Positions 1 to 28,260 of a DNA stretch of 64,000 bases are shown here, in pieces. Under the pieces are notes generated by a model. That model had not been told where the DNA came from and did not search any database. It saw only the letters and a program-made list of their open reading frames with translations. Where the stretch lies: positions 208,882-272,881 of the IMG/VR virus record IMGVR_UViG_3300005529_000001. One strand, given 5' to 3'. The position numbers and the translations under genes were made by a program. Each line of letters starts with the position of its first letter. Position 1 is the first letter of the stretch. This stretch comes from a virus.

Positions 1-789
1 GTCAGCGAACTCAGCCGCTGTCATGCCCACCCACTCGTGAACCGAGACGTTCTGGTCAGCCCCAACACGATGTCGCCAATCATGCAGGTCATCTAGAATC
101 TCTCCGGGTTCAGCACAACCCGAAGCGTAACGAAGCATGAAGGGACCCTCGCAGATGTTGTCTTTGCGGTTCTGAAACAACATGTCAATCCTCTCTTTGC
201 GGATCTTCGCTTCATATTCAGCTGCCCGCATGAGGTTATGACTGTTCTCTTGACCCTTCTTGTGTGAACGTAGTCCGCGCCATAGGAACTTGCGAGTTTG
301 GCTGTCAAGTTGCAGTGCCAGCTTGACAAAAATGAACCAACTGTCAATGTCGAGGGGCGTCAACACTCTGATGCTGAAACGGATCAGGTTGGTCGTGATC
401 CAGAGGGGGCATGTCATGATAATCATGGGCAGACCGAAGATGGCGATGCCGATCCCGGCTGAACCCATGTACTCGTCACCCATCATGTCGCCCCATTCAG
501 CGACACCAACGGTGCCCTCTTCAGCATCAATGGCGATGCTCCAACTCTGGCCTTTGCCATTGACACCCCTGATGATGACCATCGCGGGGGTCTCCAACAT
601 CTCAGGTTCCTGAAGGTCGTGACCATGCCAGTACTTGCCCCACTCATCGGGGTGTTTCCCTCGAGCCCTATAAGTGACATCAGTGACCCGGAGACTGCCA
701 AAGTAAGGCAGGTTCAACGCCTTGATGGGAGCAATGACGTTGCTCATCAAGAGAGCACCAACCCACGTGTCCAGCAATGAACTAAGCAT
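1..789 (-). CDS. hypothetical protein, partial (C-terminus beyond the left edge)
   Basis: Hand translation from ATG at 789..787 (MLSSLLDTWVGALLMSNV...) runs open to position 1; ATGA overlap with the stop of the upstream gene; not in the ORF track because there is no in-window stop. Confidence 0.45.
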   Translation of the reverse strand, partial: MLSSLLDTWVGALLMSNVIAPIKALNLPYFGSLRVTDVTYRARGKHPDEWGKYWHGHDLQEPEMLETPAMVIIRGVNGKGQSWSIAIDAEEGTVGVAEWGDMMGDEYMGSAGIGIAIFGLPMIIMTCPLWITTNLIRFSIRVLTPLDIDSWFIFVKLALQLDSQTRKFLWRGLRSHKKGQENSHNLMRAAEYEAKIRKERIDMLFQNRKDNICEGPFMLRYASGCAEPGEILDDLHDWRHRVGADQNVSVHEWVGMTAAEFAD

Positions 790-1100
790 CACTCCACCTC
801 CGTCTCGACGTCGACCTTGACCGTCGCTTTACCCAAGCTATTGACATGATAGAAGACGAAGTTGGCACCAAATCGTGCAGCATCATCGACAAACATCTCA
901 AGATCGCTCTTCTTGGTGAAAACAAAGACCCTGACTTCGTCAACGGCATAGGAAGTGCCGCTATCGTGACGGTCGTAAGGGGGTGAGTACTCGTTACGTT
1001 GAGTGAAGAGCAGCACTTGGAAGTGAGGTCCCACGGGCATCTTGTCACGCTTTTTCAGCTCGAAGCTGAGCCAACGATACGTACTGAATTCTTTGTTCAC
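789..1100 (-). CDS. hypothetical protein (103 aa)
   Basis: ORF in the minus-strand gene series; stop overlaps the downstream start. Confidence 0.55.
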   Translation of the reverse strand: MNKEFSTYRWLSFELKKRDKMPVGPHFQVLLFTQRNEYSPPYDRHDSGTSYAVDEVRVFVFTKKSDLEMFVDDAARFGANFVFYHVNSLGKATVKVDVETEVE

Positions 1101-1444
1101 CGATCTCTCCTCCCCTTCTGGCTGTTACGAAGCTGCTTCGCCTTTCGAAGCTGGATCGATTCCTGCTTGTTTGGAATGTGCTCTCGCGTTGCGAGCTCGT
1201 TTTTCAGCTCAGCGATGGTGACCTGCACGTCGACGTAATCGTCATAACCGAACGCTCGTGGCTGCACGTAAGCTTGCTCGTAGTACTTCTCTTTCGACGT
1301 GTAGGCATCGATGGGAGGCAACATGAACATGGCTCGGTCAAAGTTGATCTTGATGAGTTGTTGGTCAAACGCACACGAATACCGCAGGGCCTTCAACAGG
1401 ACCCGGGTGTGCATGCGCTTCAGATCTTTGGCGGTGATGCTCAC
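1097..1444 (-). CDS. hypothetical protein (115 aa)
   Basis: ORF with 4-nt overlap coupling to neighbours. Confidence 0.55.
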   Translation of the reverse strand: MSITAKDLKRMHTRVLLKALRYSCAFDQQLIKINFDRAMFMLPPIDAYTSKEKYYEQAYVQPRAFGYDDYVDVQVTIAELKNELATREHIPNKQESIQLRKAKQLRNSQKGRRDR

Positions 1445-1737
1445 TTACACTCGCAGATGGCGGGCTTGGAGCCCCAGACCGAAGTGTCGCTGTATGCGCA
1501 CTCCTTGACTCCTGCATCAGCACACTTCTCAGCGCAAGTGATGCAGAAGCACTCTGACTCAAACTTACAACGTCCAGGTTCCTCCGGAGGCGTCTTGACA
1601 CGACACGAGTGCATCCAATTGTCGCACTCGAGGTTCGGGCTGTTGCAGGTGCCATCCTTGTTGCAAGCGCCACCGAAGTCACCGGGATGGTTTTGACAAC
1701 CAACCAGGAATGCTAACAAGAACAAGATCTTTTTCAT
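1441..1737 (-). CDS. cysteine-rich secreted lipoprotein (98 aa)
   Basis: N-terminal MKKILFLLAFLVGC lipobox-type signal peptide; 16 Cys in the mature part. Confidence 0.6.
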   Translation of the reverse strand: MKKILFLLAFLVGCQNHPGDFGGACNKDGTCNSPNLECDNWMHSCRVKTPPEEPGRCKFESECFCITCAEKCADAGVKECAYSDTSVWGSKPAICECK

Positions 1738-2729
1738 CAGAAGTTCCCTGGGGCGACTTGGAACGTGTGAAAGCCCATCTCACGCCAGTTGTCAACGACC
1801 TGGTTCCGGTCGTCCAAGATGAAGAGGATGTTCCACTTCCCCTTGATCTCGTTGTCGTACATCTCACGCTTGATGACGGCGTCCTTGCGCTGGTCACCCG
1901 TCTTGCGCATGTGCAGCTCGTACGGGATTCCAGGCAGGTGCTCCGCCAGGAACCGCTCGGTCGGCTCGCGGTACTTCTCCTGGCGACCCGACGTGAACAG
2001 AATCTTGATCGTCTTGGGATCCCGGTTTTCCTTGACTGCACGGGCGCACAGGTACACGTACATCCCCTTGATGCACTCGATGACAGGCGTGTTGGGCGGG
2101 TCCTGGTCGCAGTTGGTCGCGTCGTACGGGTCACGGCCGTTCAGCAACGAGGCAGTACCGTCCAGGTCGCTGTCGATGGTCGTCGGCAACGCCGGGTCGA
2201 ACTCGTAAGCCATCCCGTTGTCGCCGCCCTGGCCGGGAGCCCAACGGGGCGGGTAGTACGCTTCCTTGTCGGACAGCTTGCGGCCCTTGTCCAGGCCAGC
2301 ACCACGGGCCATGTCCTTGATGACCTTCTCACCAACGTGGGCAAAGCCCTCTCGCTTCGAGTCACGCTCGATGCAAGTGGCGACGCTCTCGTTGATGCCG
2401 ACCTCGATGACCTTGATGTCACCGATCGACTTGGCGAGGTCATGCATGCTCCTGACGGTCTTGGGAACCAGGTGGGTGTCATCCAAGATGACATCAAAGC
2501 CCTCCCGGATCGCCTGGCGAACCAGCTCAGCCTTGAAATTGCGGACCAGGTCTTCCCGCTCGTTGCGGTTGCCGCTGTACGGGTTGTTGCCCGGTCCCAC
2601 GCACATGCCCCGCAGGTCGTCACGGTTGATCCGGACCCAACGGGTCGGCTCCTTCTTGATGACCTCGGCAGCCTTGCGTGACTTGCCGCTTCCCGGCAAG
2701 CCCTTCATGATCATGATCGTTCGCATCAA
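1737..2729 (-). CDS. polynucleotide 5'-kinase/3'-phosphatase (T4 Pnk-like)
   Basis: N-terminal P-loop GLPGSGKS kinase; DSDLDGT (DxDGT) HAD phosphatase motif. Confidence 0.8.
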   Translation of the reverse strand: MMRTIMIMKGLPGSGKSRKAAEVIKKEPTRWVRINRDDLRGMCVGPGNNPYSGNRNEREDLVRNFKAELVRQAIREGFDVILDDTHLVPKTVRSMHDLAKSIGDIKVIEVGINESVATCIERDSKREGFAHVGEKVIKDMARGAGLDKGRKLSDKEAYYPPRWAPGQGGDNGMAYEFDPALPTTIDSDLDGTASLLNGRDPYDATNCDQDPPNTPVIECIKGMYVYLCARAVKENRDPKTIKILFTSGRQEKYREPTERFLAEHLPGIPYELHMRKTGDQRKDAVIKREMYDNEIKGKWNILFILDDRNQVVDNWREMGFHTFQVAPGNF

Positions 2730-3148
2730 CCTCTCCTAAGTTTTTCCAACCTTCGTTGCGCCGCAGCTAAGTCAGCCTCGGCTTGCTTCACGCGGTCTGC
2801 TTTGAGAGCAGCCTGACGCTCAGCCTCCTTGCGTTCTTTCGTAGCCTTGGCCTCCGCGACACGAGCTCGCTGGTCAACGACATGAACCTCCGTGACATGG
2901 AACTCGATGAGTTCGGGTACCATGCCCGGCGTTGACAATGCGGTGATCCTACTCTTTGCTGAACCAAGCTTGATCCAGAGCCTGGCATCTTCAAGTTTCT
3001 CTTCCCACCCGGCCCGGACGTTTTTCGAGTAGGTCTTGTAATACTTGTTCGACACCGGGTGGCGAATCGCGTAAAAAGTCGCTAGTGGTTTCGGCGACTC
3101 CGTCTGGTTCCAGAGCCTAGAGTGCACGTTGCCGGGGTCGACGTCCAT
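2726..3148 (-). CDS. hypothetical protein (140 aa), charged coiled-coil C-terminus
   Basis: ORF, translationally coupled to neighbours. Confidence 0.5.
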   Translation of the reverse strand: MDVDPGNVHSRLWNQTESPKPLATFYAIRHPVSNKYYKTYSKNVRAGWEEKLEDARLWIKLGSAKSRITALSTPGMVPELIEFHVTEVHVVDQRARVAEAKATKERKEAERQAALKADRVKQAEADLAAAQRRLEKLRRG

Positions 3149-3185
3149 GCCCGAACCTTAATCCAGACCAGGACGGGTTTTTCAC

Positions 3186-3695
3186 TCACTCGGGCAAAGC
3201 TGCCGACCCAAACACACGGTCCCAGACGAATGAAATGATGCCGTAGTTGACAGTCATGTCATGATGATGCAAGAAATGAAGCCTTCGCAGCCGCTTGTAC
3301 CACTTGAAGTGACCCCACGCGTGTTTCCGGACATGAAAGCTGTCATGGACATAGTCGTTGAAGAGCGCGAAAGCAATGATGCAGATACCAAGCACGCCGA
3401 CCATCCAATGAGGAGCACCAAGCACCCAAAGCAGCCCACCGAACACCGCTAGAATAACCAAGAGGGGCGGGGTGAAGAGCAATGGGCCGCTGTGGTACCA
3501 CTTTGCTGTGCGGTACTTGTCGCTGGTCAGCTTCCCGACGGGATACAGGTCAAGGTGGTGTTCCATGTGACCCTTGTACGCCGGTCCCGCCCATTTCTGG
3601 TGGATGGCCCAATGTACAACATGACCAAAGAAGCTGGCGATGACGAAGGAGGCTAGGATGGTGAGCAGCAAGAGCATGGCGCCCCTCCTGATCAT
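3186..3695 (-). CDS. integral membrane His-box hydroxylase/desaturase-like protein (fatty acid hydroxylase superfamily, CrtZ/ERG3-like)
   Basis: 169 aa with about 4 hydrophobic segments; His boxes HVVHWAIH, HMEHH, HDSFHVRKH, HFLHHH. Confidence 0.55.
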   Translation of the reverse strand: MIRRGAMLLLLTILASFVIASFFGHVVHWAIHQKWAGPAYKGHMEHHLDLYPVGKLTSDKYRTAKWYHSGPLLFTPPLLVILAVFGGLLWVLGAPHWMVGVLGICIIAFALFNDYVHDSFHVRKHAWGHFKWYKRLRRLHFLHHHDMTVNYGIISFVWDRVFGSAALPE

Positions 3696-3720
3696 AGGAT
3701 AGGGGCGCCCACGTCCGTGT

Positions 3721-4782
3721 TCAGCCGCGCAAGCGCAAATATCTTTCAGTCATGTCCACCAGGAACCGGTCGATCGAGACCCGGTCAGCTTCCCGGCGAA
3801 GCGTTGACGTCTGGTAGAGCTCTTCAGCACGTGTTTCGAGCTTCTCGGCGCCCTCGACCAGGTCATCGTACGAGAGCGACCCACGGCGGATGCCCATCAG
3901 GAAGTCACGCTGCTCATCAAACCACTTGACATGGACCCGGTGCTTCTCGAGGATCTCGATCCCCATCAGCTCCAACCGATACAGGTGCATGCCGTGCTTG
4001 GTGTCATACCCGAATTTGGCTTCGAGCTCGGCCCGCTTGGGGTTACGAGTCTTCAGCCAGTTCTGGTATTGCCCGTAATGGGCCATTGCCGCCTGGTACG
4101 CTTTCTCCCTGGTGAAGAGGGTGACAACGTCCTTTGGCAGCTCGATGCCCAGCTTTTCCTCAGCGGCGAGCTTGATGGCGATGGCTTGTTGCATCGGAGA
4201 CACGTGCGCGCCGTCATCGATGCTGGGCATCCCCAGCAACGAATCGAACGCTCCCAGCTCAGACTTGCTGACCTTGACCTTTTCATTCAGGCCAAACTCC
4301 TCGCGAGTGGGGGCGGTCTTGGGCGGGTCCAGCAACCACTTGCGATGGGTCTTGATCCGGTGCAGCTGCGCATGAGCGTATCCCGAAAAAGTGAACTTCG
4401 CTTTCTTGGACAGGAAGTCATCGCGGCGTGCACGGAGCTCTTCACCAAACGAATCGATCTTGATGATGTCAGAGTCATCGACGTGGAGAACCTCGATGAT
4501 GTTGGGGTTGCAGTCAGCAGCCAGGCTCGCGAACTTCTCGAGCGAGTAGATGACCACGTCAGCGTCCTTGCCCTTGAGGGACTTCAACGCAGCAAGGTTG
4601 CCACCCTCCTTGTTTCCCATCCGCTCGTACTGCTCGAAACGCTGGGTGAAACCAAAGTACGCTTCCTTGGGCTTGATGCACACCCCCTTGAAATCCTCGT
4701 CGGACTCGGGCGTGTTCAGACCGTAAGCGTGGCTGCCGTGCCTCACCAACAGGATCGAGCGTTGGTCAACATCGAAATTCAT
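3721..4782 (-). CDS. predicted nucleotidyltransferase (pol-beta superfamily, PF10127-like)
   Basis: N-terminal RHGSHAYGLNTPESDEDFKGV motif (GS..YG ... SD.D). Confidence 0.6.
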   Translation of the reverse strand: MNFDVDQRSILLVRHGSHAYGLNTPESDEDFKGVCIKPKEAYFGFTQRFEQYERMGNKEGGNLAALKSLKGKDADVVIYSLEKFASLAADCNPNIIEVLHVDDSDIIKIDSFGEELRARRDDFLSKKAKFTFSGYAHAQLHRIKTHRKWLLDPPKTAPTREEFGLNEKVKVSKSELGAFDSLLGMPSIDDGAHVSPMQQAIAIKLAAEEKLGIELPKDVVTLFTREKAYQAAMAHYGQYQNWLKTRNPKRAELEAKFGYDTKHGMHLYRLELMGIEILEKHRVHVKWFDEQRDFLMGIRRGSLSYDDLVEGAEKLETRAEELYQTSTLRREADRVSIDRFLVDMTERYLRLRG

Positions 4783-4818
4783 AGCCTGCGGATCCTACTA
4801 CGACCCAACTATGATGGT

Positions 4819-5508
4819 TCACAACGGGAGATCGTGGACCGTAACCGCAGCGTTGCTGATGACCGTCTCGCCGATCTTGTCCCATCCCGCAGCATGGTGG
4901 ATGTGGCCACAAAGGACGGCTTTCAATGGTTTGATGAAACGTCCGTAGTCCATGGCATTTCTCAACGCCACGGTGCCACAATGTTGTCCCCAGCCATTCA
5001 CATCGAGAGAACCGAACGGCGGCGAGTGCGTGACCAGCACGTCAACAGAGCCCTGGTTGCAGCGATCGACCAACGTATCAACCAACTCGAGCATCCTCGG
5101 AGCTTCGGTGCTGAAAGCCCACTCTGGACCGATCCAGGGCACGTACGGGAATCCCGTCCACCTCAACCCGCCAACCTCGACAACGTTGTCAACGAGGTTA
5201 AACGCGTTGATACCCATCACCTTCAGGTCCGGGACCGGATCGAAGAAGTCATGATTGCCCGGACAGAACAAGAAAGGCAGATCACCGCACAGTTGCTTGA
5301 TGTCAGCTTCAACGCGGTGAAGCCACGTCTGTTGGGTGTAGACAGACGCAGGCCTGACACGTGAACTAGCATCGAGACGGACCTGTTCATCCTTGGTCAA
5401 GTACCCGTCGGGTCCAAAGTCTCCCGAACACACGACGATGTCATATCCCGTAACCGGTGAGAGGGCCGGGATGCGACCGTGGTTGTCGGAAAAATGAAGG
5501 ACACGCAC
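4819..5508 (-). CDS. calcineurin-like metallophosphoesterase
   Basis: Motifs HFSDNHG, GDFGPDG, GNHD, GHIHH. Confidence 0.75.
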   Translation of the reverse strand: MRVLHFSDNHGRIPALSPVTGYDIVVCSGDFGPDGYLTKDEQVRLDASSRVRPASVYTQQTWLHRVEADIKQLCGDLPFLFCPGNHDFFDPVPDLKVMGINAFNLVDNVVEVGGLRWTGFPYVPWIGPEWAFSTEAPRMLELVDTLVDRCNQGSVDVLVTHSPPFGSLDVNGWGQHCGTVALRNAMDYGRFIKPLKAVLCGHIHHAAGWDKIGETVISNAAVTVHDLPL

Positions 5509-5533
5509 CTGACCGATCGTACCGCGAAAACCC

Positions 5534-5944
5534 TTAGACTTTCACTCTCGTCGAGACAATCTCAAATGTTTCTGTCTCGATTTGTAGGTAAGTTGTCAAC
5601 AGGCCTGAGCTGTTGTAATCGAGCTTGTCAAACCACATCTTCTGGGGACGTACCCTAAACTTCCACAGCTCAACGACAGTGCCCACAGGGTCCAAGAACT
5701 TCAGCTCCCCATCTTTCGACAGAGGCGCATCGAGCCAGGCTTTGAGGCGTTCGTTTTGATCGCCACTAGCTACGTTAAAAAGCCCAAGGACCAAAATCTT
5801 AGTCGAACTATTTGATTCGATCACCGGTGGTTCGACCGTCTTGACGAGGTAGGCGTCAACGCCCTCCAACATCATGACCCAGCGATTGACTCGCAAGGGT
5901 TCGAACTTGTTTGGCAACAGCTTATTTTCGTCTACAATCTTCAT
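5534..5944 (-). CDS. tail tube protein paralog (gp19 family-like), second copy
   Basis: N-terminus LPNKFEPLRVNRWVMMLEGVDAYLVKT matches the tube protein at 34721..35209 (LPNKFEPKRKNRWVLMIEGIDAYIMKT). Confidence 0.55.
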   Translation of the reverse strand: MKIVDENKLLPNKFEPLRVNRWVMMLEGVDAYLVKTVEPPVIESNSSTKILVLGLFNVASGDQNERLKAWLDAPLSKDGELKFLDPVGTVVELWKFRVRPQKMWFDKLDYNSSGLLTTYLQIETETFEIVSTRVKV

Positions 5945-5970
5945 GATCCTAGCTAGACGCTAGGTCAGGA

Positions 5971-6378
5971 TCAGTAGCCGTTATTGATCCGGTCAGTGTT
6001 GACGTCGCCCTTATCCAGGTACGCCTTGACTAACTCATCAAGGCTGATGCCGCTAGCAATGACCAGCTCGAAGTACAGGTGAAGAGCATCAACCAACTCC
6101 TCTTTGTATGCTTCGCGATCGACCTCAGGAAGCTCAGTTGCACGGTGAGACTTGGCGTTCTTCAGGTGCAATCCCGCCTCAAACAGCTCTTCAAAGATGT
6201 GGTTCCTGATGTCTTTCAGGAACTTCTGGCCTTTCTTGGACGTGATGTCCGTCGGAAACTCCGGGAAACCACGCTTCTCCTGGAGAAGATGCATGAAAGC
6301 GACCTGCTGGTCCCACATCGCTTTCAACCTGTCAGAATGCTGGTCCCCTGTCGGGGTGAGTTCAATTTCTGCGTTCAT
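5971..6378 (-). CDS. MazG-like nucleotide pyrophosphohydrolase
   Basis: All-alpha protein with EELFEA / EELVDALH acidic motifs typical of MazG/HisE. Confidence 0.6.
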   Translation of the reverse strand: MNAEIELTPTGDQHSDRLKAMWDQQVAFMHLLQEKRGFPEFPTDITSKKGQKFLKDIRNHIFEELFEAGLHLKNAKSHRATELPEVDREAYKEELVDALHLYFELVIASGISLDELVKAYLDKGDVNTDRINNGY

Positions 6379-6386
6379 GGTTTGTT

Positions 6387-6653
6387 TCAGTTGTCGGAAT
6401 CAGGTGGGATGATGAACTTGTTTCCACGCGTCTGGGCCTGGATCTCACGAGCCTGTGCCAACATCTTTTCGTGCATCTCACGGACCTGTTTCTGGTACTC
6501 TGGCGACAACACCAACACGTGAGAGTCTGATTCGTCAGGAATACAGCGGATCTGTCGCAAGTAATCGCTGCAATCTGTCCCGGTCAGCATTGCTTCCTGG
6601 ACGATTTGGACGACACGGTGCCACACGCTGTCAGCAAACTTCAGTTCTTTCAT
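6387..6653 (-). CDS. hypothetical protein (88 aa)
   Basis: ORF. Confidence 0.5.
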   Translation of the reverse strand: MKELKFADSVWHRVVQIVQEAMLTGTDCSDYLRQIRCIPDESDSHVLVLSPEYQKQVREMHEKMLAQAREIQAQTRGNKFIIPPDSDN

Positions 6654-6674
6654 TGATAAGCCTCGAACGTGATC

Positions 6675-7292
6675 CTACATCGACTTGAGCCGGCTGATAC
6701 TGTCCCTGATGTCTTCCCCGAGTGAAGTTGGGCACTCCCTGCCCACGCAGTGCCATCCTGGAGTGGCACGACGGGCGAACAACTCGAGCCTGTTCGCTTC
6801 CGGGAACATGGCCTCAAAGCTTGCGTGAAGGTGTTGGGGTTTAATGGAATGTCCCAGGTTCGGGTAAAAGCAGACGCTCCTTTGTGAGTGATCTTCCAAG
6901 CTCTTGTAGACACTCTTACCCGAAGCGCAGATGTATGCTGTCTCGTGTGTCTGTCGAAACAGCCGGCCCATGCCAAAAGCCAAGCACTCATCGACGTACA
7001 TCATGTGCTTGGGCATCTTCTTCTTGGTCTTGACCCAGACAAAGTTCTGCTTCAATTTGAAGCCCCAACCCTGGTAGACCTGGATTCCCGCCTCCATGAA
7101 CGATCCTGGGACCCACAGGCCCAGGACACAACCATCGGGATCAGCGAGCGACGCTACGTCAAGACCGATGATGTCATTGAGCGTCATCACGCCGTACTGT
7201 GACTCCGCCGAACGACGCGTGTTCGCTTTCATTTTCGCCAGCTTGTCATCGAACGACCAAGGCGGGTCAGCAATGATGACTTGGAATTTCAT
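6675..7292 (-). CDS. N6-adenine DNA methyltransferase (MT-A70/DPPW type)
   Basis: N-terminal IIADPPW motif. Confidence 0.75.
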   Translation of the reverse strand: MKFQVIIADPPWSFDDKLAKMKANTRRSAESQYGVMTLNDIIGLDVASLADPDGCVLGLWVPGSFMEAGIQVYQGWGFKLKQNFVWVKTKKKMPKHMMYVDECLAFGMGRLFRQTHETAYICASGKSVYKSLEDHSQRSVCFYPNLGHSIKPQHLHASFEAMFPEANRLELFARRATPGWHCVGRECPTSLGEDIRDSISRLKSM

Positions 7293-7915
7293 GCGTGTTG
7301 GCTCGTTGAGCTGCGGATGACGTTCGTGTTCTCCAGCAATGCTCGGATGCTGTGATGGACGTCCATGACCGCGTCATGGTTGTCAACCAACGCATGACCG
7401 GGCCAGTTCATGCCGATGCCACGGTAAGCGACCCTCACTTTGGTCTGGAGGTCTGAGTCTTTCTCGTAGGAATCATCCGTGGTCGTTGACCGTTTGTACG
7501 AGGTACCTGACAACACCAACGTGATGTCAGAACGCTTGACAAGGTTGAACATCCACTTGTTCAACGTGGGGTTGATTCCCTCAGCTTCGCCATAAACGAA
7601 GCCAGACAGGGCCCATCGGTCAAGGATGACGATCTCGTGTTCTCTCATCAGCTTGGGCAGCTTAAACAGCTGGAAGTAGACCTTATTGAGGAACTGGACA
7701 AACTGGAACGTGTTGGGGTGACGTTTAGCAGCACCCGAGTCGAGCATCGAGTAGATGAGTTTCTTCATCCTCGGGTGAGCTTCCTTGGAAGGCTCAACGC
7801 GGATGACCCGGAAGCCTTCGGCTTTCAAGACGTTGGCAAGCAACTTCGATTGCGTTTCTTTGCCCACCTTGTCAGGGCCCTCGAACACCACCAGCTTAGC
7901 TCTCATTGTCACCAC
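7289..7915 (-). CDS. tmk: thymidylate (dTMP) kinase
   Basis: P-loop FEGPDKVGKET; LDRW motif. Confidence 0.8.
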   Translation of the reverse strand: MVTMRAKLVVFEGPDKVGKETQSKLLANVLKAEGFRVIRVEPSKEAHPRMKKLIYSMLDSGAAKRHPNTFQFVQFLNKVYFQLFKLPKLMREHEIVILDRWALSGFVYGEAEGINPTLNKWMFNLVKRSDITLVLSGTSYKRSTTTDDSYEKDSDLQTKVRVAYRGIGMNWPGHALVDNHDAVMDVHHSIRALLENTNVIRSSTSQHA

Positions 7916-7940
7916 ATCCTATCCCTTATCTGCGTCCAGT

Positions 7941-8912
7941 TCATTCGGCGGGGCGCGCGAGGAAGTTTGCTTCGTGCGGTAACGTCTTCCGAAGCTGGAC
8001 CCAGCCCCTGAAGTTGCCACAGAAGTTTTTGGCTGGATCGAAGTTGTCGGCGATGAATTGACCAGGAGTCCCGTACTTGTATTCCGCCTCACTGACTGTC
8101 ATCGGACGAGCAACGTGTTCGAACGGTGACATGTGTCCCGCCTTTTGGAGACGAGTCGCTAGATCGATGTCGGCTTTGATGTCACGCTTGCCGGTGTCAT
8201 GCGTCAGGTACGACACCCGAGCACACCGACCAGCGCTGATCCAACACGCTTCCTGCCACCGCATCATCACGCAAGGTCCCGGCACGGGCTCGTTCCACTC
8301 AGGCGAGTCATCAGCAAGGACAAACTCATCGGGCTGCATTAGCGGCAAATGCCACTCATTGGGCATGACCTGTTTCGGCTGGGACGCATCAAACGCACGC
8401 TTCATGTGTTCAGCAGCGGTTCGCATCTCGGGTTGAGCGGCTTTATGACAACGCAAGCCCCAAAAATTGTCCCACTCCGTTGCAGTAACGATGACCGTGT
8501 GCCACAACCATGGCTCAAGGATCCGGTTGGCGATCTGCTTGTGAAGGTCAATGTCTTCTAGCTGCAAACGCTCAACGTGTCGGACAGCGCTGTCTCGAGC
8601 ACGCAACCACTCCGCTTCAGCTTTGACTTTGGGCATAGGTTCCAGTTCAACCTCTGCCTCCATCCCCTTCTGGTTCTTTCCCCAGAAAACAGGAAGGAAC
8701 GGGTCATTTGTCACCCGTTCCAACATCTTCTTGATCGGAATCGCTCGGCTAGAAGCACTGTTCCGAGAGAACATCCGATGCGTGTTAAGCTCCGCCAACA
8801 CGATCCGAGGAAGAGTGACTTCCATCGTCACAAGCCGTGGTCCTAACGTTTGATGGTTGGGCCACTTGATTACCGGAATGCTATCAGCAAGAACTCGAGC
8901 GCTAAAACCCAT
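7941..8912 (-). CDS. thyX: flavin-dependent thymidylate synthase ThyX
   Basis: ThyX signature NTHRMFSRNSASSRA (RHRxxxxxS). Confidence 0.85.
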   Translation of the reverse strand: MGFSARVLADSIPVIKWPNHQTLGPRLVTMEVTLPRIVLAELNTHRMFSRNSASSRAIPIKKMLERVTNDPFLPVFWGKNQKGMEAEVELEPMPKVKAEAEWLRARDSAVRHVERLQLEDIDLHKQIANRILEPWLWHTVIVTATEWDNFWGLRCHKAAQPEMRTAAEHMKRAFDASQPKQVMPNEWHLPLMQPDEFVLADDSPEWNEPVPGPCVMMRWQEACWISAGRCARVSYLTHDTGKRDIKADIDLATRLQKAGHMSPFEHVARPMTVSEAEYKYGTPGQFIADNFDPAKNFCGNFRGWVQLRKTLPHEANFLARPAE

Positions 8913-8920
8913 ACCCCAAC

Positions 8921-9187
8921 TTACACCCGACGGGTGAAGTTGAATAACGCATCTTCTAAGACGTCGTAAAGCTTTTCTTCAAGAGTATCACACACATCAT
9001 TCATCGCAGCAATGGCTTCACGCTGGTCTGATGGGTTCTCGCTCTTGTTCAGCAAGATGAATTGCTTGATCCGATCACGGACCTGATCGACAAAGTCAGT
9101 CGTGTCTTGGCGCAGCGCCCATTCTGGAACGCCGTGAAGGTATTCTTCTCTGATCAGCTTTCTGACGGCGCCAAGTCTGACTTTCAC
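8921..9187 (-). CDS. small protein with N-terminal MKVRLGAVRKLIREE motif (candidate capsid-targeted/internal protein)
   Basis: ORF; shares its N-terminal motif with 9184..9555, 35276..35683, 57690..58244 and 34090..34614. Confidence 0.55.
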   Translation of the reverse strand: MKVRLGAVRKLIREEYLHGVPEWALRQDTTDFVDQVRDRIKQFILLNKSENPSDQREAIAAMNDVCDTLEEKLYDVLEDALFNFTRRV

Positions 9188-9555
9188 GCGACAGCTTTCT
9201 TAGCGACTGGAGCGGGCTGTTCAGCTGAACCCGCTTTGGTTGCCTCGGCCCAAGCAGTTTGGACTGCTTTGTGAACACGAGCCATCATCACCTCGGTTGC
9301 CTTGTTGGACGCTGCTTTGATCTGCTCCCAAGCTTGATCATCGAACTCACGGGTCTCCGCGTTGTATTGGTCCTTTGCCGCGAGCATCATGTTCTGCTGG
9401 ATCGCGCCCCGAAACGGTTGCTCTAGCGATGCAAGCGCTTTTGCGATGTTCGGCTGGTCCATCGGATCCTGGACAGGCTTGTTGTTCGCAAACGCAGACG
9501 GCGAGACCGCGACCTCTCGCAAGATCCGTTTCAAAGTGCCCAACCGAACCCTCAT
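9184..9555 (-). CDS. small protein with N-terminal MRVRLGTLKRILREV motif (paralog of 8921..9187)
   Basis: ORF; tandem, with 4-nt overlap. Confidence 0.55.
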   Translation of the reverse strand: MRVRLGTLKRILREVAVSPSAFANNKPVQDPMDQPNIAKALASLEQPFRGAIQQNMMLAAKDQYNAETREFDDQAWEQIKAASNKATEVMMARVHKAVQTAWAEATKAGSAEQPAPVAKKAVA

Positions 9556-9558
9556 GGC

Positions 9559-10098
9559 TCAGTGCCTCCCGCGGGGATGCATGGGAGGCAGGACAGCGTC
9601 TTCATCACCGCTAGCGTGGTAACCGCGTTGCGGCTCACGGCCCGTCGGGGCGTGCTTCTCTGGACCGCCAACATCGACATGGCCCGTGCCACCTGTAACC
9701 CCGCCAGCTTTCCCAGTATTCCGCGGGTGCATCGGGAGGATGTCATCCTCATCCATCTCGTCAAACTCACCCGACTGGAGCATGTCAGCCGTCTCTCTGA
9801 CGTCGTTCTCGATCAACCGGCACAAGTAATGAGAAGCGAGCTTGGCTGCGCGCCCATCGTCTACTTCTACGCCCTCATAGAGCTGGTTGTCTGAGTGAAA
9901 AGCCTCGATCAGGTCAATGATCGCGTGCTGGAGCGCTGTCGAGAGCTCGACCTTTCTGGGCGTCTCATCGAGCAACTCATCTTCTGCATCGATCCCTTCA
10001 AGGATCCGGTGACGCTCCTGCTGAGAGCTGTGAAACGCTCGTGACTCTTCGATGACGATCTCGTTGATCATCTCCTCTTGACGCTTCGTGAGCCCCAT
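9559..10098 (-). CDS. acidic hypothetical protein
   Basis: ORF; the ATG at 10098 is preferred over the GTG at 10107 because AGGAGTG lies 6 nt upstream. Confidence 0.5.
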   Translation of the reverse strand: MGLTKRQEEMINEIVIEESRAFHSSQQERHRILEGIDAEDELLDETPRKVELSTALQHAIIDLIEAFHSDNQLYEGVEVDDGRAAKLASHYLCRLIENDVRETADMLQSGEFDEMDEDDILPMHPRNTGKAGGVTGGTGHVDVGGPEKHAPTGREPQRGYHASGDEDAVLPPMHPRGRH

Positions 10099-10116
10099 CT
10101 GTGACACTCCTGAGCG

Positions 10117-10124
10117 ATAAGTAT
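10117..10124 (-). promoter_or_regulatory. ATAAGTAT box upstream of the 9559..10098 gene
   Basis: Same motif family; about 19 nt from the ATG. Confidence 0.25.
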
Positions 10125-10131
10125 GGCTCGC

Positions 10132-12642
10132 TCAGCACTTGCTCCAGCCACACATGGTCCCGTCCTGCTTCACCCCTCCGAGGCACGACACGCATCCCTG
10201 CTGGTAAACAAGAGTCTCTCCCCCGCACTCTGGACACCGTTTCTCGCTAGTGTGAGCCTTGGTCCCGTCAACGATGTAGCCCTTCAGGACCCGGGCGACC
10301 ACCGAGCTAAAGCTGGTGATGTCACTGTGCTTGTCTTTTTTTAGCTGCTCAACCAAGAACTGGACAGGTGTCCCATGGCGGAGAGACAAGCTGATCATCC
10401 GGGTGAAAGCCCCGTGAACGGGGTTATCAAACATGCTGACGATGTCTTTCAACACTAGCTCGTCATCATCGCCCAATGGGATCCGCAAGTTGTATGTTGC
10501 GACGCCGTCTTTCTTGCCGTTCTTGACGATGAGAGCTTTCTTTGCTTTCTTTGGGATCTCAACCTGTTCGCTGAGGCCTGCGAAGATCTCGTAAGGCCTG
10601 TCGCCCAGGGTTCCGACCAGCATCAGGTATTGCTCGCCTTTGACGTTGACCCGATGGATGTCAGCCTGCATCTCCTTGGGACGCTTGGGAGCGTGAGTCT
10701 CAACGATGATCAGGGGCTGCCCGTTTTCGGACGTTGCACCCTCGTTGACAATGACAGCATCGCGGCTGCCGATCCGGTAGATGGTGACGCCTTTGCACCC
10801 AGTTTCCCAACCATGCCAGCACAGCTCTTCGACGTCATCATTAGAAACGTCTTTGGGCAAGTTGGTGGTGTTGCTGATGCTGTGACAGATCCATTTTTGT
10901 GCAGTGGCCTGGATGTCGATCTTCTTAATGAAGTCGATCTCTTCAACAGTAGAACCAAAGTAAGGTGACTCTTTGGGATCAGACTTCCCGGTTATCTCCA
11001 TCCATTTCTTGAACCCGGGATGGATGAGATCGTAGTACTGCCACTTGTCTCCCAGGGCATCGACTTCGTCGATCCGTGACGCACGGTCTTCTTCGGTGAT
11101 CTTACGCTTGCGACGTGACTTGACGAACAAAACGGGTTCACAACCGCTGGTCGTTTGGGTCAGGATCGACATGCTGCCTGCCGGAGCCGTCGTTGTCAGA
11201 GCGATGTTACGACGACCGAACTGCTTGTAAGCACGTCGCAAGTCAGGGTCTTCATCCATGATACGCTCGATGAACGGGTGACCCTTCTCTACATCGTGTG
11301 AGAAAATCGGGAACGCACCACGCTCCGCTGCCATGTCAACCGTCGATCGGTATGCCGACAGAGCAAGCTGCCTGTAGATCTTGTCTGCAAGCTGGATGCT
11401 TGCATCGCTACCATATTGCAGGTTGCACATCGCAAATGTGTCGCCCAGAGCAGTTATGCCCAACCCAGTGCGGCGGCCGTTGACTGCAGCGTTCTTGATC
11501 TTTGTCCACAAATCACGTTCAACGCGCTTGACGTCAGTAGGCTCGGGATCAACGTCAATCTTCGCCAGAATCCGGTCAACAGCTTCAAGTTCAAGATCGA
11601 TGAGGTCATCCATCAAGCGTTGAGCTTGATACGTTGATCTGTCAAAACGCTCAAAATCGAACCTAGCATCTTTGGTGAACGGGTTATTAACGAACTTTGA
11701 CAGGTTCATCAACAACAGACGACACGAGTCGTAAGCTGACAGGGTGATCTCGCCACACGGGTTGGTGCTGATGCTGCCATAACCAGACTCGCGGTAAGCG
11801 TCAGCGGGTCCCATCTTCTCGACCTGGTCCCAAAACAGCATGCCTGGTTCGCTGCAATCACGCATCGCAGCGACGATATTCTTCCAGACTTCTTTTGCAT
11901 CAACCCATTGTTCGATGACATACTGGCCTGGCTTGCCATCAACTGGGAAACGTTGTTGGTACTTCTCTCCCTTGTTGACAGCGCGCATGAACTCGTCTGT
12001 CACGCGGATGGAGACGTTCGCACCCGTCACCTTTTTCCGGTCACGTTTGATGTTTGCAAACGTCAACACTTCCGGATGATGGACGCTGATCGTCAGCATC
12101 AGAGCACCTCGGCGACCACCCTGTGCTACTTCTCGGCAGGTGTTGGAGTACCTCTCCATGAAGACGCCGATCCCGTCGGTGGTCCTAGCTGCGTTAGCCG
12201 CCGCCATGCCACGGGGCCTGATCGTCGATAGGTCAAAGCCCACGCCACCACGACGCTTCATGATCTGGACTTCTTCCTGGTCCGTCTTCATGATGCCACC
12301 GTAGCTGTCGAAGGGCGACTGGATCACAAAGCAATTGCTGAGGCTCTGTACTTGGTATGGGTTGCCAATAGCGGAGAGGGGCCCGCCTTGAGGGACAACT
12401 TCCCATGAAGTCAACAGGCGTTTGATCTCTTCAAACGAGATTGCGTTGACGTACTTGCTTTCAGCACGATGAAATTCCCGAGCAATGCGCTCATGCATCT
12501 CATCGGGTGATCGCTCGTAGAGAACACCCTTCAGGTCTTGAAGCGCGTACTTGCCCGCAAAAACGTCTGCAGCAAGCTCATCTCCGTGAAAATATGTGAT
12601 CGAGGCATCACGCACCTCGTTGTAGGTGTATGTCGTCGTCAA
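10132..12642 (-). CDS. nrdJ: class II (adenosylcobalamin-dependent) ribonucleotide reductase, monomeric type
   Basis: 836 aa; C-terminal Cys-rich ribbon CPECGG...CVSCLGG; overall class II RNR appearance; TTG start with a GGAGAGGG SD. Confidence 0.85.
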   Translation of the reverse strand: MTTTYTYNEVRDASITYFHGDELAADVFAGKYALQDLKGVLYERSPDEMHERIAREFHRAESKYVNAISFEEIKRLLTSWEVVPQGGPLSAIGNPYQVQSLSNCFVIQSPFDSYGGIMKTDQEEVQIMKRRGGVGFDLSTIRPRGMAAANAARTTDGIGVFMERYSNTCREVAQGGRRGALMLTISVHHPEVLTFANIKRDRKKVTGANVSIRVTDEFMRAVNKGEKYQQRFPVDGKPGQYVIEQWVDAKEVWKNIVAAMRDCSEPGMLFWDQVEKMGPADAYRESGYGSISTNPCGEITLSAYDSCRLLLMNLSKFVNNPFTKDARFDFERFDRSTYQAQRLMDDLIDLELEAVDRILAKIDVDPEPTDVKRVERDLWTKIKNAAVNGRRTGLGITALGDTFAMCNLQYGSDASIQLADKIYRQLALSAYRSTVDMAAERGAFPIFSHDVEKGHPFIERIMDEDPDLRRAYKQFGRRNIALTTTAPAGSMSILTQTTSGCEPVLFVKSRRKRKITEEDRASRIDEVDALGDKWQYYDLIHPGFKKWMEITGKSDPKESPYFGSTVEEIDFIKKIDIQATAQKWICHSISNTTNLPKDVSNDDVEELCWHGWETGCKGVTIYRIGSRDAVIVNEGATSENGQPLIIVETHAPKRPKEMQADIHRVNVKGEQYLMLVGTLGDRPYEIFAGLSEQVEIPKKAKKALIVKNGKKDGVATYNLRIPLGDDDELVLKDIVSMFDNPVHGAFTRMISLSLRHGTPVQFLVEQLKKDKHSDITSFSSVVARVLKGYIVDGTKAHTSEKRCPECGGETLVYQQGCVSCLGGVKQDGTMCGWSKC

Positions 12643-19338: not shown

Positions 19339-19554
19339 TCAGGTTTTTGCCTTCGCGCAGCTGCTGTGGTGGGCCAACATGCGGCCGTACCCGTGGGGCA
19401 ATTTTCGGTTCTGCTCACGGCGGTCAGGCGGGAACCAGTAGTCGGGACACGTACACTTGACGTTCGCCTGAGCTTTGCACGCCAAGCAGTTGTTACGCGA
19501 GGCCAGGCCTTCGATGGTGTTCCAGGGCTGGCAAGTGTGCCCAGCGAAGTTCAT
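19339..19554 (-). CDS. small Cys-rich protein (71 aa)
   Basis: ORF with 8 Cys; coupled to the HD gene (ATGA). Confidence 0.4.
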   Translation of the reverse strand: MNFAGHTCQPWNTIEGLASRNNCLACKAQANVKCTCPDYWFPPDRREQNRKLPHGYGRMLAHHSSCAKAKT

Positions 19555-20168
19555 TCCACGGGCCAGATGATTCCCGGTTTCTCTTCCATCGTCGAGATGT
19601 AGTCAGCAGTCTGAACACCGTAGACAAGGGGCCTGATCTTCAGACAATATTTTTTGTTTTCTTCGGGCTTGAACCCGTCGTTGAGCTTGATGGCCAGGAA
19701 CTCATCAACAGTCAGTTGGATGCCGTAGTGCTGCATCAGGAACAACGAGCGATCGGGAGTCGAGAAGTAAGGGAGCTCATCGTTGTACTTGTACTCTTCA
19801 CCCAGCTTTTCAGCGCGCCAAGCGTCTGTCTGCGGGATGTAGAAATCGTTCTCACTGCCCTTTCCCGGCATGCCAACCTTGCCGATGTCATGGAAGAGCG
19901 CCGCGATGATCATCGCTTCTTTGTTCAGTTTCCAGCCGTACCCGTTATTGAGAACAACGAGGTTGTTGAGCACCCGGAGGCTGTGATCGACCAGCCCACC
20001 CGGGAATGCTCCGTGATAATCGACCTTTGCCGAAGCTGGAGCTAGGCACAATCGTTCGTCGAGATCATCGAGCATCTCGGACAACGCTTGCCCACGGGTT
20101 GGGCATTTGTCACACAACCCACGAAACTTTTTCCAGTTCTGCTCGATCTCTTCAGGTGTCAACGACAT
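19551..20168 (-). CDS. HD-domain phosphohydrolase
   Basis: HSLRV ... LFHDIGK (H...HD) motifs. Confidence 0.75.
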   Translation of the reverse strand: MSLTPEEIEQNWKKFRGLCDKCPTRGQALSEMLDDLDERLCLAPASAKVDYHGAFPGGLVDHSLRVLNNLVVLNNGYGWKLNKEAMIIAALFHDIGKVGMPGKGSENDFYIPQTDAWRAEKLGEEYKYNDELPYFSTPDRSLFLMQHYGIQLTVDEFLAIKLNDGFKPEENKKYCLKIRPLVYGVQTADYISTMEEKPGIIWPVE

Positions 20169-20200
20169 GCTGTAATCTTACAAGCACAATCTTAGCTTGT

Positions 20201-24426: not shown

Positions 24427-24719
24427 CAGGTCACCAATGCAGCGACCTGTACCAGGTTAGGTACCGTCAGAAGCGTTCCTGGGGGCACTTGAAGCCCCCA
24501 ACCGATGTTACTCGCTGCCGCCAAGACCCACCAGTACCGTGCGTCACCGTAGATCACACCTGCCATGGTGTCTAGGCGTTCACGACCACGAAGAACGATC
24601 TGGTTTGACTGGATCAAACCGCTCTTGATCCCAGCGCGGATAGCTTCTGCAGCACGGCCTGTCCCATATTGCTGTCCGTAGGCGAGGATGGGCGTTCGAG
24701 TGTATCTGCTAGACGGCAT
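24426..24719 (-). CDS. tail protein X-like (LysM-type) baseplate protein
   Basis: LRGRERLDTMAGVIYGDARYWWVLAAASNIG...PPGTLLTVP resembles P2 gpX/LysM. Confidence 0.55.
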   Translation of the reverse strand: MPSSRYTRTPILAYGQQYGTGRAAEAIRAGIKSGLIQSNQIVLRGRERLDTMAGVIYGDARYWWVLAAASNIGWGLQVPPGTLLTVPNLVQVAALVT

Positions 24720-24727
24720 CGATCACC

Positions 24728-27973: not shown

Positions 27974-27978
27974 GGGCT

Positions 27979-28248: not shown

Positions 28249-28260
28249 GTCACGATCCTA

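Follow-up and report, generated by a model that had tools for sequence, protein, structure and literature searches.

A probable RlaP-Pnkp-RNA ligase module for RNA break repair in an uncultured T4-like jumbo phage

Introduction

RlaP, a nucleotidyltransferase of family PF10127, owes its name to a genomic linkage with RNA ligases, and across jumbo phages the two are distributed alike (PMC7824862). RNA repair operons containing RlaP were described by Burroughs & Aravind 2016 (as cited in PMC7824862 and PMC12776372), and clusters of RlaP, Pnkp and Rnl have since been described in jumbo phages (PMC7824862). The biochemistry of RlaP was published in 2025, together with the characterization of a Pseudomonas rtcB-rlaP-rtcA operon: the enzyme adds one or two NMPs onto an RNA 3'-OH, is inactive on DNA and on 3'-P ends, favours mimics of broken tRNA and is compatible with 5'-P ligases (PMC12776372). 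Phage T4 encodes an RlaP homologue of its own, NrdC.11 (PMC12776372).

In T4 the corresponding genes are dispersed around the genome (pseT at 134 kb, rnlA at 136 kb, rnlB at 109 kb and nrdC.11 at 55 kb). Among cultured large phages, Vibrio phage D181 carries genes for a CCA enzyme, RlaP, Thg1, Rnl1 and Pnkp together, and Pseudaeromonas phage KLEP7 groups a CCA enzyme, Pth2, RlaP and a phosphoesterase. The bacterial Pnkp/Hen1 system, of the Clostridium thermocellum Pnkp type, follows a similar logic of healing plus sealing, in which a calcineurin-type phosphoesterase provides the 2',3'-cyclic/3'-phosphatase step; in that system kinase, phosphoesterase and ligase are fused in one polypeptide and are accompanied by the Hen1 methyltransferase.

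Results

The DNA studied here (the window) is a 64-kb stretch of an uncultured virus, and its contig is ENA ERZ27279688 k141_1055159, 369,506 bp long and 100% identical across the overlap (14,782 nt compared, 0 mismatches; position 14782 of contig locus L091 is window position 1). The gp23 capsid, portal and baseplate of the phage are T4-like. Four genes had been picked out in the initial annotation, encoding a polynucleotide kinase/phosphatase (Pnkp), a His-box membrane protein, the RlaP nucleotidyltransferase and a calcineurin-like phosphoesterase; all four were correctly placed on the minus strand and are confirmed by Pfam or PHROG matches, with catalytic motifs intact in each. In the order of the contig, they and their neighbours are as follows.

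4819..5508, minus strand: MPE1, calcineurin-like metallophosphoesterase, 229 aa (PF00149, 1.1e-11)
3721..4782, minus strand: RlaP (PF10127), Pol-beta nucleotidyltransferase, 353 aa (PF10127, 3.9e-19; PHROG 388, 3.2e-63)
3186..3695, minus strand: FAhyd, membrane di-iron protein of the FA_hydroxylase superfamily, 163-169 aa (PF04116, 1.1e-9)
2726..3148, minus strand: hyp140, conserved small protein with a C-terminal coiled coil
1737..2729, minus strand: Pnkp, T4-type bifunctional polynucleotide 5'-kinase / 3'-phosphatase (PF13671 and PF25109, PHROG 505)
1441-1737, minus strand: cys98, small, uncharacterised ORF
1097-1444, minus strand: hyp115, small, uncharacterised ORF
789-1100, minus strand: hyp103, small, uncharacterised ORF
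1-789, minus strand: orf283, 5' part, uncharacterised ORF running off the window edge
L091:14832-15635, same strand as Pnkp: PF09414 RNA ligase, 50 nt past window position 1

Beyond the ligase the contig continues with p241, p217 and a second phosphoesterase, MPE2. From hyp140 to p217 the genes overlap or are separated by intergenic gaps of at most 1 nt, and the successive gaps from Pnkp through the small ORFs to the ligase are -1, -4, -4, -1 and -14 nt. The coding strand showed no terminator-like site. The surroundings form a nucleotide-metabolism and replication block (RNR, ThyX, Tmk, MazG, dUTPase, RecA-like, DnaB-like and 5'-3' exonuclease), a setting that would also fit a role on DNA ends.

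The initial annotation had seen no ligase, and within the window this holds: Pfam scans of 45 window ORFs found none, and T4 RnlA, RnlB and gp30 and E. coli RtcB, used as queries in phmmer and profile searches, gave no match among all window ORFs of at least 80 aa on either strand. However, the PF09414 ligase (E 8.5e-33, also matching PHROG RNA ligase families) belongs to the same tightly packed gene string, where, 2.1 kb downstream of Pnkp, it closes a series of ORFs that overlap or abut. The ligase therefore seemed absent because the window stops short of it, and the RNA-repair partner that the annotation suggested seeking elsewhere in the genome is present on the contig. Four or five ORFs, four of them with no assigned function or family, separate it from Pnkp. 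The protein retains motifs I (EK45xDG), III (E106), IIIa (F126D127), IV (E213GxxxK218) and V (K230). At 267 aa it comprises the nucleotidyltransferase domain alone, lacking the C-terminal domain of T4 Rnl2 and the N-terminal domain of NgrRnl, and for this reason its substrate preference is uncertain. A T4 RnlB query missed it directly and matched only after profile iteration, and the vicinity of the cassette showed no Rnl1-type ligase.

Pnkp, for which the gene caller puts the ATG at 2726, combines an AAA_33 kinase domain (PF13671, 4.6e-18) with a HAD_PNKP domain (PF25109, 4.5e-40) and matches the polynucleotide kinase family PHROG 505 (4.7e-77). Identity to T4 PseT is low (phmmer 3.9e-30), yet every catalytic residue of the T4 kinase (K16, S17, D37, R40 and R126) and of the T4 phosphatase (D188, D190, R199, R249, D283 and D306/307) is kept. 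Similarly, RlaP aligns over its whole length with PHROG 388 and with T4 NrdC.11 (BLASTP E 2e-11), and its G16S17, D28xD30 and D75 are unchanged across nine diverse homologues. The nucleotidyltransferase thus belongs to an RNA-ligase-associated family, not to the antibiotic or cGAS nucleotidyltransferases, which supports the earlier reading of the cassette as one of RNA repair. The CCA-like addition first proposed for it is not supported: what has been shown for RlaP is the addition of one or two NMPs to the 3'-OH end of a broken RNA (PMC12776372).

The clustering of these genes extends beyond a single phage. In 80 RlaP-anchored IMG/VR loci, each fetched with 10 kb on either side, Pnkp lay within that distance in 32 and an RNA ligase in 26, so the clustering is not accidental. 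Related uncultured jumbo phages share the order RlaP, hyp140, Pnkp, RNA ligase, p217 and second phosphoesterase; in this clade of 26 loci, many of them incomplete at their ends, all 26 have RlaP, 16 have Pnkp, 13 the ligase and 16 MPE2, and the order never varies. Among more distant phages, RlaP, Rnl2 and Pnkp directly adjoin one another in two loci (L034 and L069) with the same RNR-ThyX-Tmk-MazG context, and distant jumbo-phage contigs carry RlaP followed by Pnkp-Rnl1, a PF09414 ligase or both. Nevertheless, the parts can be uncoupled, because in a sub-lineage (L006, L007 and L024) that keeps RlaP and MPE2, the 10 kb of downstream sequence fetched beyond RlaP contained neither Pnkp nor ligase.

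Discussion

We consider it likely that this region makes up the upstream two-thirds of a full RlaP-Pnkp-RNA ligase module for the repair of breaks in RNA, presumably tRNA, in a T4-like jumbo phage of 369.5 kb known only as uncultured sequence. What we observe directly is the family membership of the genes, their intact catalytic motifs, their order and operon-like packing, and the conservation of their linkage. The linkage of RlaP with ligase and Pnkp was described between 2016 and 2021, and the cassette is a known kind of phage RNA-repair set. The initial description of the combination as outside the textbook T4 arrangements was therefore overstated, as T4 has NrdC.11 and clusters of RlaP, Pnkp and Rnl are on record for jumbo phages (PMC7824862) and present in phage D181. 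As in T4, the locus has a Pnkp of the same bifunctional architecture, an RlaP homologue and an ATP-dependent ligase joining 5'-P to 3'-OH, but the genes form one co-oriented string and the ligase is a nucleotidyltransferase domain only. With other RlaP operons it shares a PF10127 enzyme with three catalytic acidic residues and a genomic link to an RNA ligase and end-healing enzymes. In Pseudomonas the partners of RlaP are RtcB, a 3'-P ligase, and RtcA, whereas here they are a 5'-P ligase and Pnkp, a chemically more straightforward pairing because the RlaP product ends in a 3'-OH. The locus resembles D181 in the clustering of RlaP with Pnkp and RNA ligase, and KLEP7 in the metallophosphoesterase adjoining RlaP; however, RlaP in these cultured phages is only about 34% identical to that found here, and no CCA-adding enzyme, Thg1, Pth2 or Rnl1 was found near the cassette. 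The locus differs from the Clostridium thermocellum Pnkp/Hen1 system in having the HAD domain of a T4-type Pnkp as its phosphatase and phosphoesterases that are proteins in their own right; a Hen1 was not seen.

From published work on T4 PseT/Rnl and Pseudomonas RlaP we infer what each enzyme does, that the substrate is tRNA, and in which order the steps follow. A ribotoxin of the host or a competitor, such as an anticodon nuclease, would cut the RNA and leave a 2',3'-cyclic phosphate and a 5'-OH. The HAD domain of Pnkp would then strip the cyclic or 3' phosphate, perhaps helped by the metallophosphoesterases, and the P-loop domain would phosphorylate the 5'-OH. Where a nucleotide-trimming toxin of the RloC type had acted, RlaP would add one or two NMPs to the 3'-OH; as it strictly needs this end, it would have to act after the phosphatase step. 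Finally, the ATP-dependent PF09414 ligase would seal the 3'-OH to the 5'-P.

Other explanations of the locus have to be weighed against such a repair module. A cassette that only heals ends, with no dedicated ligase and with the nucleotidyltransferase and phosphoesterase substituting in 3'-end repair through CCA-like addition, would agree with the lack of a ligase inside the window, but a ligase with an intact motif I lysine stands just past the edge on the same strand and ORF chain and is conserved at that site in relatives, and RlaP adds one or two NMPs of any kind, not CCA (PMC12776372); we regard this explanation as extremely improbable. Alternatively, Pnkp and the ligase might process DNA ends rather than RNA, for example 3'-P/5'-OH nicks made in replication or after attack by a host nuclease. 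T4-type Pnkp acts on DNA ends too, in vitro, and the module does lie within a block of nucleotide-metabolism and replication genes. However, the ligase falls in the RNA ligase families of Pfam and PHROG and not in DNA ligase families, RlaP is inactive on DNA (PMC12776372), and in cultured phages the trio is linked to a CCA enzyme, Thg1 and Pth2, all of which makes a role on DNA very unlikely. It had also been suggested that the cassette and a tmRNA form a set of genes for maintaining the translation apparatus. The tmRNA is real (56206-56576, minus strand; ARAGORN and Rfam, 87 bits), both elements act on that apparatus, and the contig encodes a peptide deformylase. Yet 50 kb separate the tmRNA from the cassette, its neighbours are structural and uncharacterised genes, and nothing ties the two together. 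No tRNA genes were found in the window or L091, no conserved linkage of tmRNA and cassette was seen, and such genes are commonly carried independently by jumbo phages (PMC7824862). A coordinated set thus seems unlikely.

The position of MPE1 is less clear-cut. Its metallophosphoesterase motifs are complete (D8xH10, G29D30, G84NHD87, H161 and G201HxH204), and it may act as a 2',3'-cyclic or 3'-phosphoesterase; the Clostridium thermocellum enzyme is a possible precedent for both MPE1 and MPE2. However, the phosphoesterase cannot be counted as a conserved member of the cassette, because it occurs in just one of the 26 related loci (L001). MPE1 is a variable, optional accessory gene, and its slot is hypervariable, with Hsp20 and HExxH genes there in relatives. 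The chances are close to even, and slightly against, that it is an independent gene unconnected with repair, such as a cyclic-nucleotide phosphodiesterase breaking down the immune signals of the host, and stands beside RlaP by chance. Among solved structures its closest relative is MPPED2, a cyclic-nucleotide phosphodiesterase (9e-9), metagenome sources label its homologues 'Icc-related', two homologues (P0009 and P0011) are not adjacent to RlaP, and a role in countering nucleotide signals is predicted for calcineurin-like phosphodiesterases of jumbo phages (PMC7824862). Against such independence, a 423-kb contig of a distant megaphage (L098) again has a homologue, of 37% identity, 0.85 kb upstream of RlaP and carries Pnkp 5 kb downstream, and a different phosphoesterase adjoins RlaP in KLEP7. 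Furthermore, P0009 and P0011 sit 2-4 kb from a Ro60-type vWA protein, Ro/TROVE proteins having been described as an RNA-repair platform, and in a few jumbo phages the 3'-phosphatase step is reportedly carried out by calcineurin-like domains (PMC7824862).

Between RlaP and Pnkp sits the membrane di-iron enzyme, a protein with no known RNA role. Its His boxes (H28xxxH32, H43xxHH47, H117xxxH121 and H140xxHH144) are unchanged in 25 homologues, and its AF2 model (pLDDT 90.8) has the Scs7p hydroxylase domain as its top, weak, fold match. The gene occurs in 13 of the 26 clade loci, a tblastn search of 50,697 phage genomes gave no match, and it is a clade-specific insert whose product probably functions outside RNA repair; together with the small ORFs it most likely represents passenger genes. 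The small protein hyp140 gave no family match and its AF2 model is poor (pLDDT 65), but its gene lies immediately upstream of Pnkp in 14 of the 26 clade loci, and here its stop codon overlaps the Pnkp ATG by 1 nt.

Results

The ligase lies just beyond the window edge

The repair locus of this phage is a standard module of RlaP (the PF10127 nucleotidyltransferase), Pnkp (the T4-type polynucleotide kinase/phosphatase) and an RNA ligase, and its 'ligase-less' appearance is a product of where the window was cut. The four genes recognized in the initial annotation are all where it had placed them, with their active-site motifs intact, and the RNA-repair interpretation offered there is upheld and strengthened. 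The same annotation had seen no ligase in view. That is correct inside the 64-kb window, where Pfam scans, phmmer and profile searches found no ligase of any type; direct phmmer searches with T4 RnlA, RnlB, gp30 and E. coli RtcB/RtcA likewise gave no window ligase and recovered just a few ligases in distant loci. It is not correct for the contig. When the RlaP protein was looked up by exact sequence, the window's own contig proved to be ENA ERZ27279688 k141_1055159 (369,506 bp, of which the analysis covered ~84 kb), and the fetched part of it designated L091 is identical to the window across the entire 14,782-nt overlap, such that window position 1 is L091 position 14782. A PF09414 RNA ligase gene, a partner of the kind that the initial annotation had suggested looking for elsewhere in the genome, starts 50 nt past window position 1, on the same strand as RlaP and 3.8 kb downstream of it.

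Genes of the repair locus (window positions unless marked L091)
4819-5508 (-): MPE1, metallophosphoesterase (PF00149)
3721-4782 (-): RlaP nucleotidyltransferase (PF10127, 3.9e-19; PHROG 388, 3.2e-63)
3186-3695 (-): FAhyd, PF04116 FA_hydroxylase-like membrane protein
2726-3148: hyp140, 140-aa ORF between the His-box gene (FAhyd) and Pnkp
1737-2729 (-): Pnkp (PF13671, 4.6e-18; PF25109 HAD_PNKP, 4.5e-40; PHROG 505, 4.7e-77)
1441-1737: cys98, small ORF
1097-1444: hyp115, small ORF
789-1100: hyp103, small ORF
1-789: orf283, 283 aa, gene cut by the window edge
L091:14832-15635: RNA ligase, 267 aa
L091:15632-16357: p241
L091:16359-17012: p217
L091:17045-17872: MPE2, second metallophosphoesterase
Next after MPE2: two N6/N4 DNA methylases

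Nearly all genes of the window are on the minus strand. From hyp140 to p217, neighbouring ORFs overlap by 1-14 nt or sit 1 nt apart, and a promoter/terminator scan found no terminator-like site on the coding strand (counts were at shuffle level); Pnkp and the ligase therefore lie in a single tightly packed, co-oriented gene string. MPE2, with p217, is 2.3-3.1 kb to the left of window position 1 on the same contig. The start of Pnkp is an ATG according to the gene caller, with an alternative TTG one codon upstream.

Assignment of the three core proteins

Pnkp appears, on its sequence, to be a T4-type polynucleotide kinase/phosphatase with both domains. Its kinase motif GLPGSGKS fits GxxGxGK[ST], and K16, S17, D37, R40 and R126 align with K15, S16, D35, R38 and R126 of the T4 kinase. 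The phosphatase motif D188-L-D190-G-T fits DxDGT, with D188/D190 equivalent to T4 D165/D167, and R199, R249, D283 and D306/307 match R176, R213, D254 and D277/278 of the T4 phosphatase. Every catalytic residue of T4 PseT is thus kept, and the PF25109 score is 137.5 against a cut-off of 27.6.

The nucleotidyltransferase is, as judged from its model match, catalytic signature and linkage to an RNA ligase, a member of the RlaP (PF10127) family. The Pfam match (69.7 bits, cut-off 23) covers the N-terminal nucleotidyltransferase half of the model and the PHROG 388 match spans the full length of the protein; searches of the PDB with the single sequence and with an RlaP profile gave no sequence match. 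G16S17, D28xD30 and D75 are invariant in nine homologues including T4 NrdC.11, to which the protein is homologous over its full length (E 2e-11), and in the C-terminal part, where the PfRlaP structure has a helical domain, R250, E254, G258, D260, K262, H266 and R269 are conserved in the alignment with NrdC.11 and other RlaPs. NrdC.11 has itself been described as an RlaP (PMC12776372). T4 carries its own RlaP, and the contrast drawn with the textbook T4 arrangements was overstated.

The ligase matches PF09414 RNA_ligase with an E-value of 8.5e-33 (114.3 bits, cut-off 27), and PHROG RNA-ligase families match too. Profile iteration was required to reach the clade ligase, and Pfam then confirmed the result, as a guard against profile drift. 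Motifs I (EK45MDG), III (E106), IIIa (F126D127), IV (E213GLYIK218) and V (K230) are invariant in 12 homologues. The protein begins only ~40 residues ahead of motif I and ends ~35 residues past motif V, leaving no counterpart of the T4 Rnl2 C-terminal domain in its 267 residues. A ligase profile matched NgrRnl weakly in the PDB (E 1e-4, nucleotidyltransferase domain only), while a single-sequence search of the PDB gave no match. Assignment to T4 Rnl2 sensu stricto or to Rnl5 (NgrRnl/DraRnl) was rejected, since the protein has neither the Rnl2 C-terminal domain nor the Rnl5 N-terminal OB-like domain, accessory domains on which substrate binding depends in those enzymes; it is therefore filed simply as a PF09414 member. 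Searches of NCBIfam with RlaP, the ligase, MPE1, FAhyd, hyp140, orf283, p241 and p217 brought no further assignment.

Conservation of the module in uncultured jumbo phages

We fetched 80 RlaP-anchored and seven Pnkp-anchored loci from IMG/VR, and defined a clade of 26 loci of uncultured jumbo phages in which RlaP identity is 52-71%. Gene order in the clade runs from RNR through ThyX, Tmk, MT-A70, hyp88, MazG and a variable slot to RlaP, and continues with FAhyd and hyp140 (each in some loci), Pnkp, optional small ORFs, the PF09414 ligase, p217 (again optional), MPE2 and a methylase.

Occurrence of genes in the 26 clade loci (counts are lower bounds, since many loci are truncated)
RlaP: 26/26
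Pnkp: at least 16/26
MPE2: at least 16/26
hyp140: at least 14/26
ligase: at least 13/26
FAhyd: at least 13/26
p217: at least 10/26
MPE1: 1/26 (L001)

Two loci (L034 and L069) have an Rnl2-like ligase directly between RlaP and Pnkp, with unchanged flanking synteny. On jumbo-phage contigs that are more distant, 4-9 kb separate RlaP and Pnkp, and Rnl1-type and/or PF09414 ligases come after Pnkp; within the flanks fetched for all 80 RlaP-anchored loci, Pnkp is found in 32 and a ligase in 26. Three loci of one sub-lineage (L006, L007 and L024, one of them a contig of 215,857 bp) retain RlaP, FAhyd, p217, MPE2 and the methylases. The 10 kb that were fetched downstream of their RlaP genes do not contain the block from hyp140 and Pnkp to the ligase, so that the genes for healing and sealing have been either cleanly deleted or moved elsewhere. 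A megablast of window positions 1-12000 against 50,697 phage genomes gave no match, so this is a phage without a close cultured relative. Among cultured phages, the same RlaP-Pnkp-ligase association is seen in Vibrio phage D181, where a CCA enzyme, RlaP, Thg1, Rnl1 and Pnkp occur together, and Pseudaeromonas phage KLEP7 has a CCA enzyme, Pth2, RlaP and a metallophosphoesterase in one cluster.

Two unrelated phosphoesterases

MPE1 has all of its metal-binding motifs (D8xH10, G29D30, G84NHD87, H161 and G201HIH204), and MPE2 has the full calcineurin-like set (DxH, GD, GNH[DE], H and GHxH); apart from these superfamily motifs the two are unrelated. MPE1 was rejected as a conserved component of the module, being present in only one of the 26 clade loci. 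It sits, with hyp136, in a hypervariable slot between MazG and RlaP (window 4783-5970). In relatives L002-L021 this slot holds a ~205-aa HExxH protein as well as Hsp20/alpha-crystallin genes (PF00011) in one to three paralogous copies. It is MPE2 that shows a consistent linkage to the ligase: most of the related contigs have both p217 and MPE2 after the ligase gene. MPE2 matches TIGR03729 ('putative phosphoesterase') weakly.

Calcineurin-like phosphoesterases of jumbo phages have been regarded as RNA-repair 3'-phosphatases in a few cases, or as counter-signalling phosphodiesterases (PMC7824862), and for MPE1 we consider the odds between these two roles to be roughly even. On a 423-kb contig (GCA_902725685.1), the gene of a homologue with 37% identity immediately precedes RlaP, and Pnkp follows 5 kb further on. 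Two further homologues are near a Ro60-type vWA protein and not near RlaP, the closest relative with a solved structure is MPPED2, a cyclic-nucleotide phosphodiesterase, and metagenome sources label MPE1 homologues 'Icc-related'.

Discussion

The analysis establishes to which families the proteins belong, which motifs they carry, how the genes are ordered and that their linkage is conserved; the activities, substrate and order of steps are inferred from the named families. A ribotoxin cut would leave 2',3'-cyclic phosphate and 5'-OH ends. The HAD domain of Pnkp would then open the cyclic phosphate and remove it, and the kinase domain would phosphorylate the 5' end. RlaP would restore one or two nucleotides where the toxin had excised them, a step that could come only after the phosphatase step because RlaP requires a 3'-OH, and the PF09414 ligase would finally close the break. 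It had been proposed that the nucleotidyltransferase could perform, for example, a CCA-like addition. The literature points elsewhere: two Pseudomonas RlaPs, the only enzymes for which this chemistry is established, extend RNA 3'-OH ends by one or two NMPs, do not act on DNA or on 3'-phosphorylated ends, favour the 5' half when given a mimic of broken tRNA, and are chemically compatible with 5'-P ligases (2025 preprint, PMC12776372). [quoted passage not shown]

A very different possibility is that the clade-specific proteins embedded in the module, namely FAhyd, hyp140 (which is translationally coupled to Pnkp) and the p217-MPE2 pair, which invariably comes after the minimal ligase, are not passengers, but working parts of a modified repair machine. 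In one form of this reading the repair complex would be anchored to the membrane; in another, p217 or MPE2 would provide the substrate binding or end cleaning that is missing in the minimal ligase. We think it highly improbable that these genes are working parts of the machine.

Half of the clade loci carry FAhyd between RlaP and Pnkp, and it is a membrane protein of 163-169 aa with the HxxxH, HxxHH and HxxHH boxes of a di-iron enzyme, its four His boxes being invariant in 25 homologues. It belongs to the fatty-acid-hydroxylase superfamily (PF04116, 39.3 bits, cut-off 31). Its AF2 model is a helical bundle (pLDDT 90.8) with Scs7p as best PDB match (probability 0.97, E 0.036), and an RNA-related fold was rejected, as the sole fold matches, all weak, were lipid hydroxylases. 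The 25 homologues, of ~163 aa, are all metagenomic, several on contigs of 127-357 kb, and tblastn found no match among the 50,697 deposited phage genomes. As for p217, an N-terminal CCHC zinc knuckle is present on this contig only and scores below the Pfam threshold; the knuckle is missing from seven aligned homologues, and p217 was therefore rejected as an RNA-binding zinc-knuckle partner in general. Only three homologues of hyp140 were found, and its AF2 model (pLDDT 65) was too poor for a fold search. FAhyd is treated here as a passenger or auxiliary gene and as a curiosity.

Once the locus is read as the standard RlaP-Pnkp-ligase module, what is still new about it is limited to the minimal ligase, which has no accessory domain, to hyp140 and p217 as conserved proteins without an assigned function, and to the FA-hydroxylase-like gene embedded in the locus. 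The significance of the clade is that it adds one more group of uncultured jumbo phages in which RlaP, Pnkp and a 5'-P ligase are physically strung together, such a ligase being the simplest fit for an RlaP whose product ends in a 3'-OH. With the three enzymes joined in this way, the clade could be a handy source of a compact, presumably co-transcribed system for the reconstitution of repair after damage by nucleotide-excising ('smart') ribotoxins.

Other features of the window

The tmRNA, which had been grouped with the repair genes as one set for maintaining translation, is real (56206-56576, minus strand; Rfam RF00023, 87 bits, full length) and encodes the tag peptide ANDNGFADDVRLAA. Nothing ties it to the cassette, from which it is 50 kb distant, amid genes of structural and unknown function, and there are no tRNA genes in the window or in L091. 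It is potentially useful for host prediction. The rest of the window is that of a T4-like myovirus, with a gp23 capsid protein and T4 baseplate and sheath-like proteins, and further genes for RNR, ThyX, Tmk, MT-A70, dUTPase and RecA-like and DnaB-like proteins.

Several additional genes were recorded.

10132-12642 (-): ribonucleotide reductase large subunit, 836 aa, with a C-terminal TSCPD domain
19551-21430 (-): 409-aa protein, beside an HD-domain protein, whose only match is to the C-terminal part of family A DNA polymerase; possibly a PolA that has been split or fragmented
21448-32010 (-): three huge ORFs (992, 1081 and 1249 aa) without a Pfam match, flanked by the polymerase fragment on one side and by baseplate genes on the other
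35698-38844 and 38954-42142 (-): adjacent paralogues of ~1050 aa each, unusually large duplicated sheath-like genes in which the match to the tail-sheath C-terminal domain is limited to the last ~100 residues
L091:19891-20826: weak Pfam match to Gad2 (PF26128), 4 kb past the ligase
L100:8057-8551 (L100 being another part of the same contig): peptide deformylase amid head genes, past the right edge of the window
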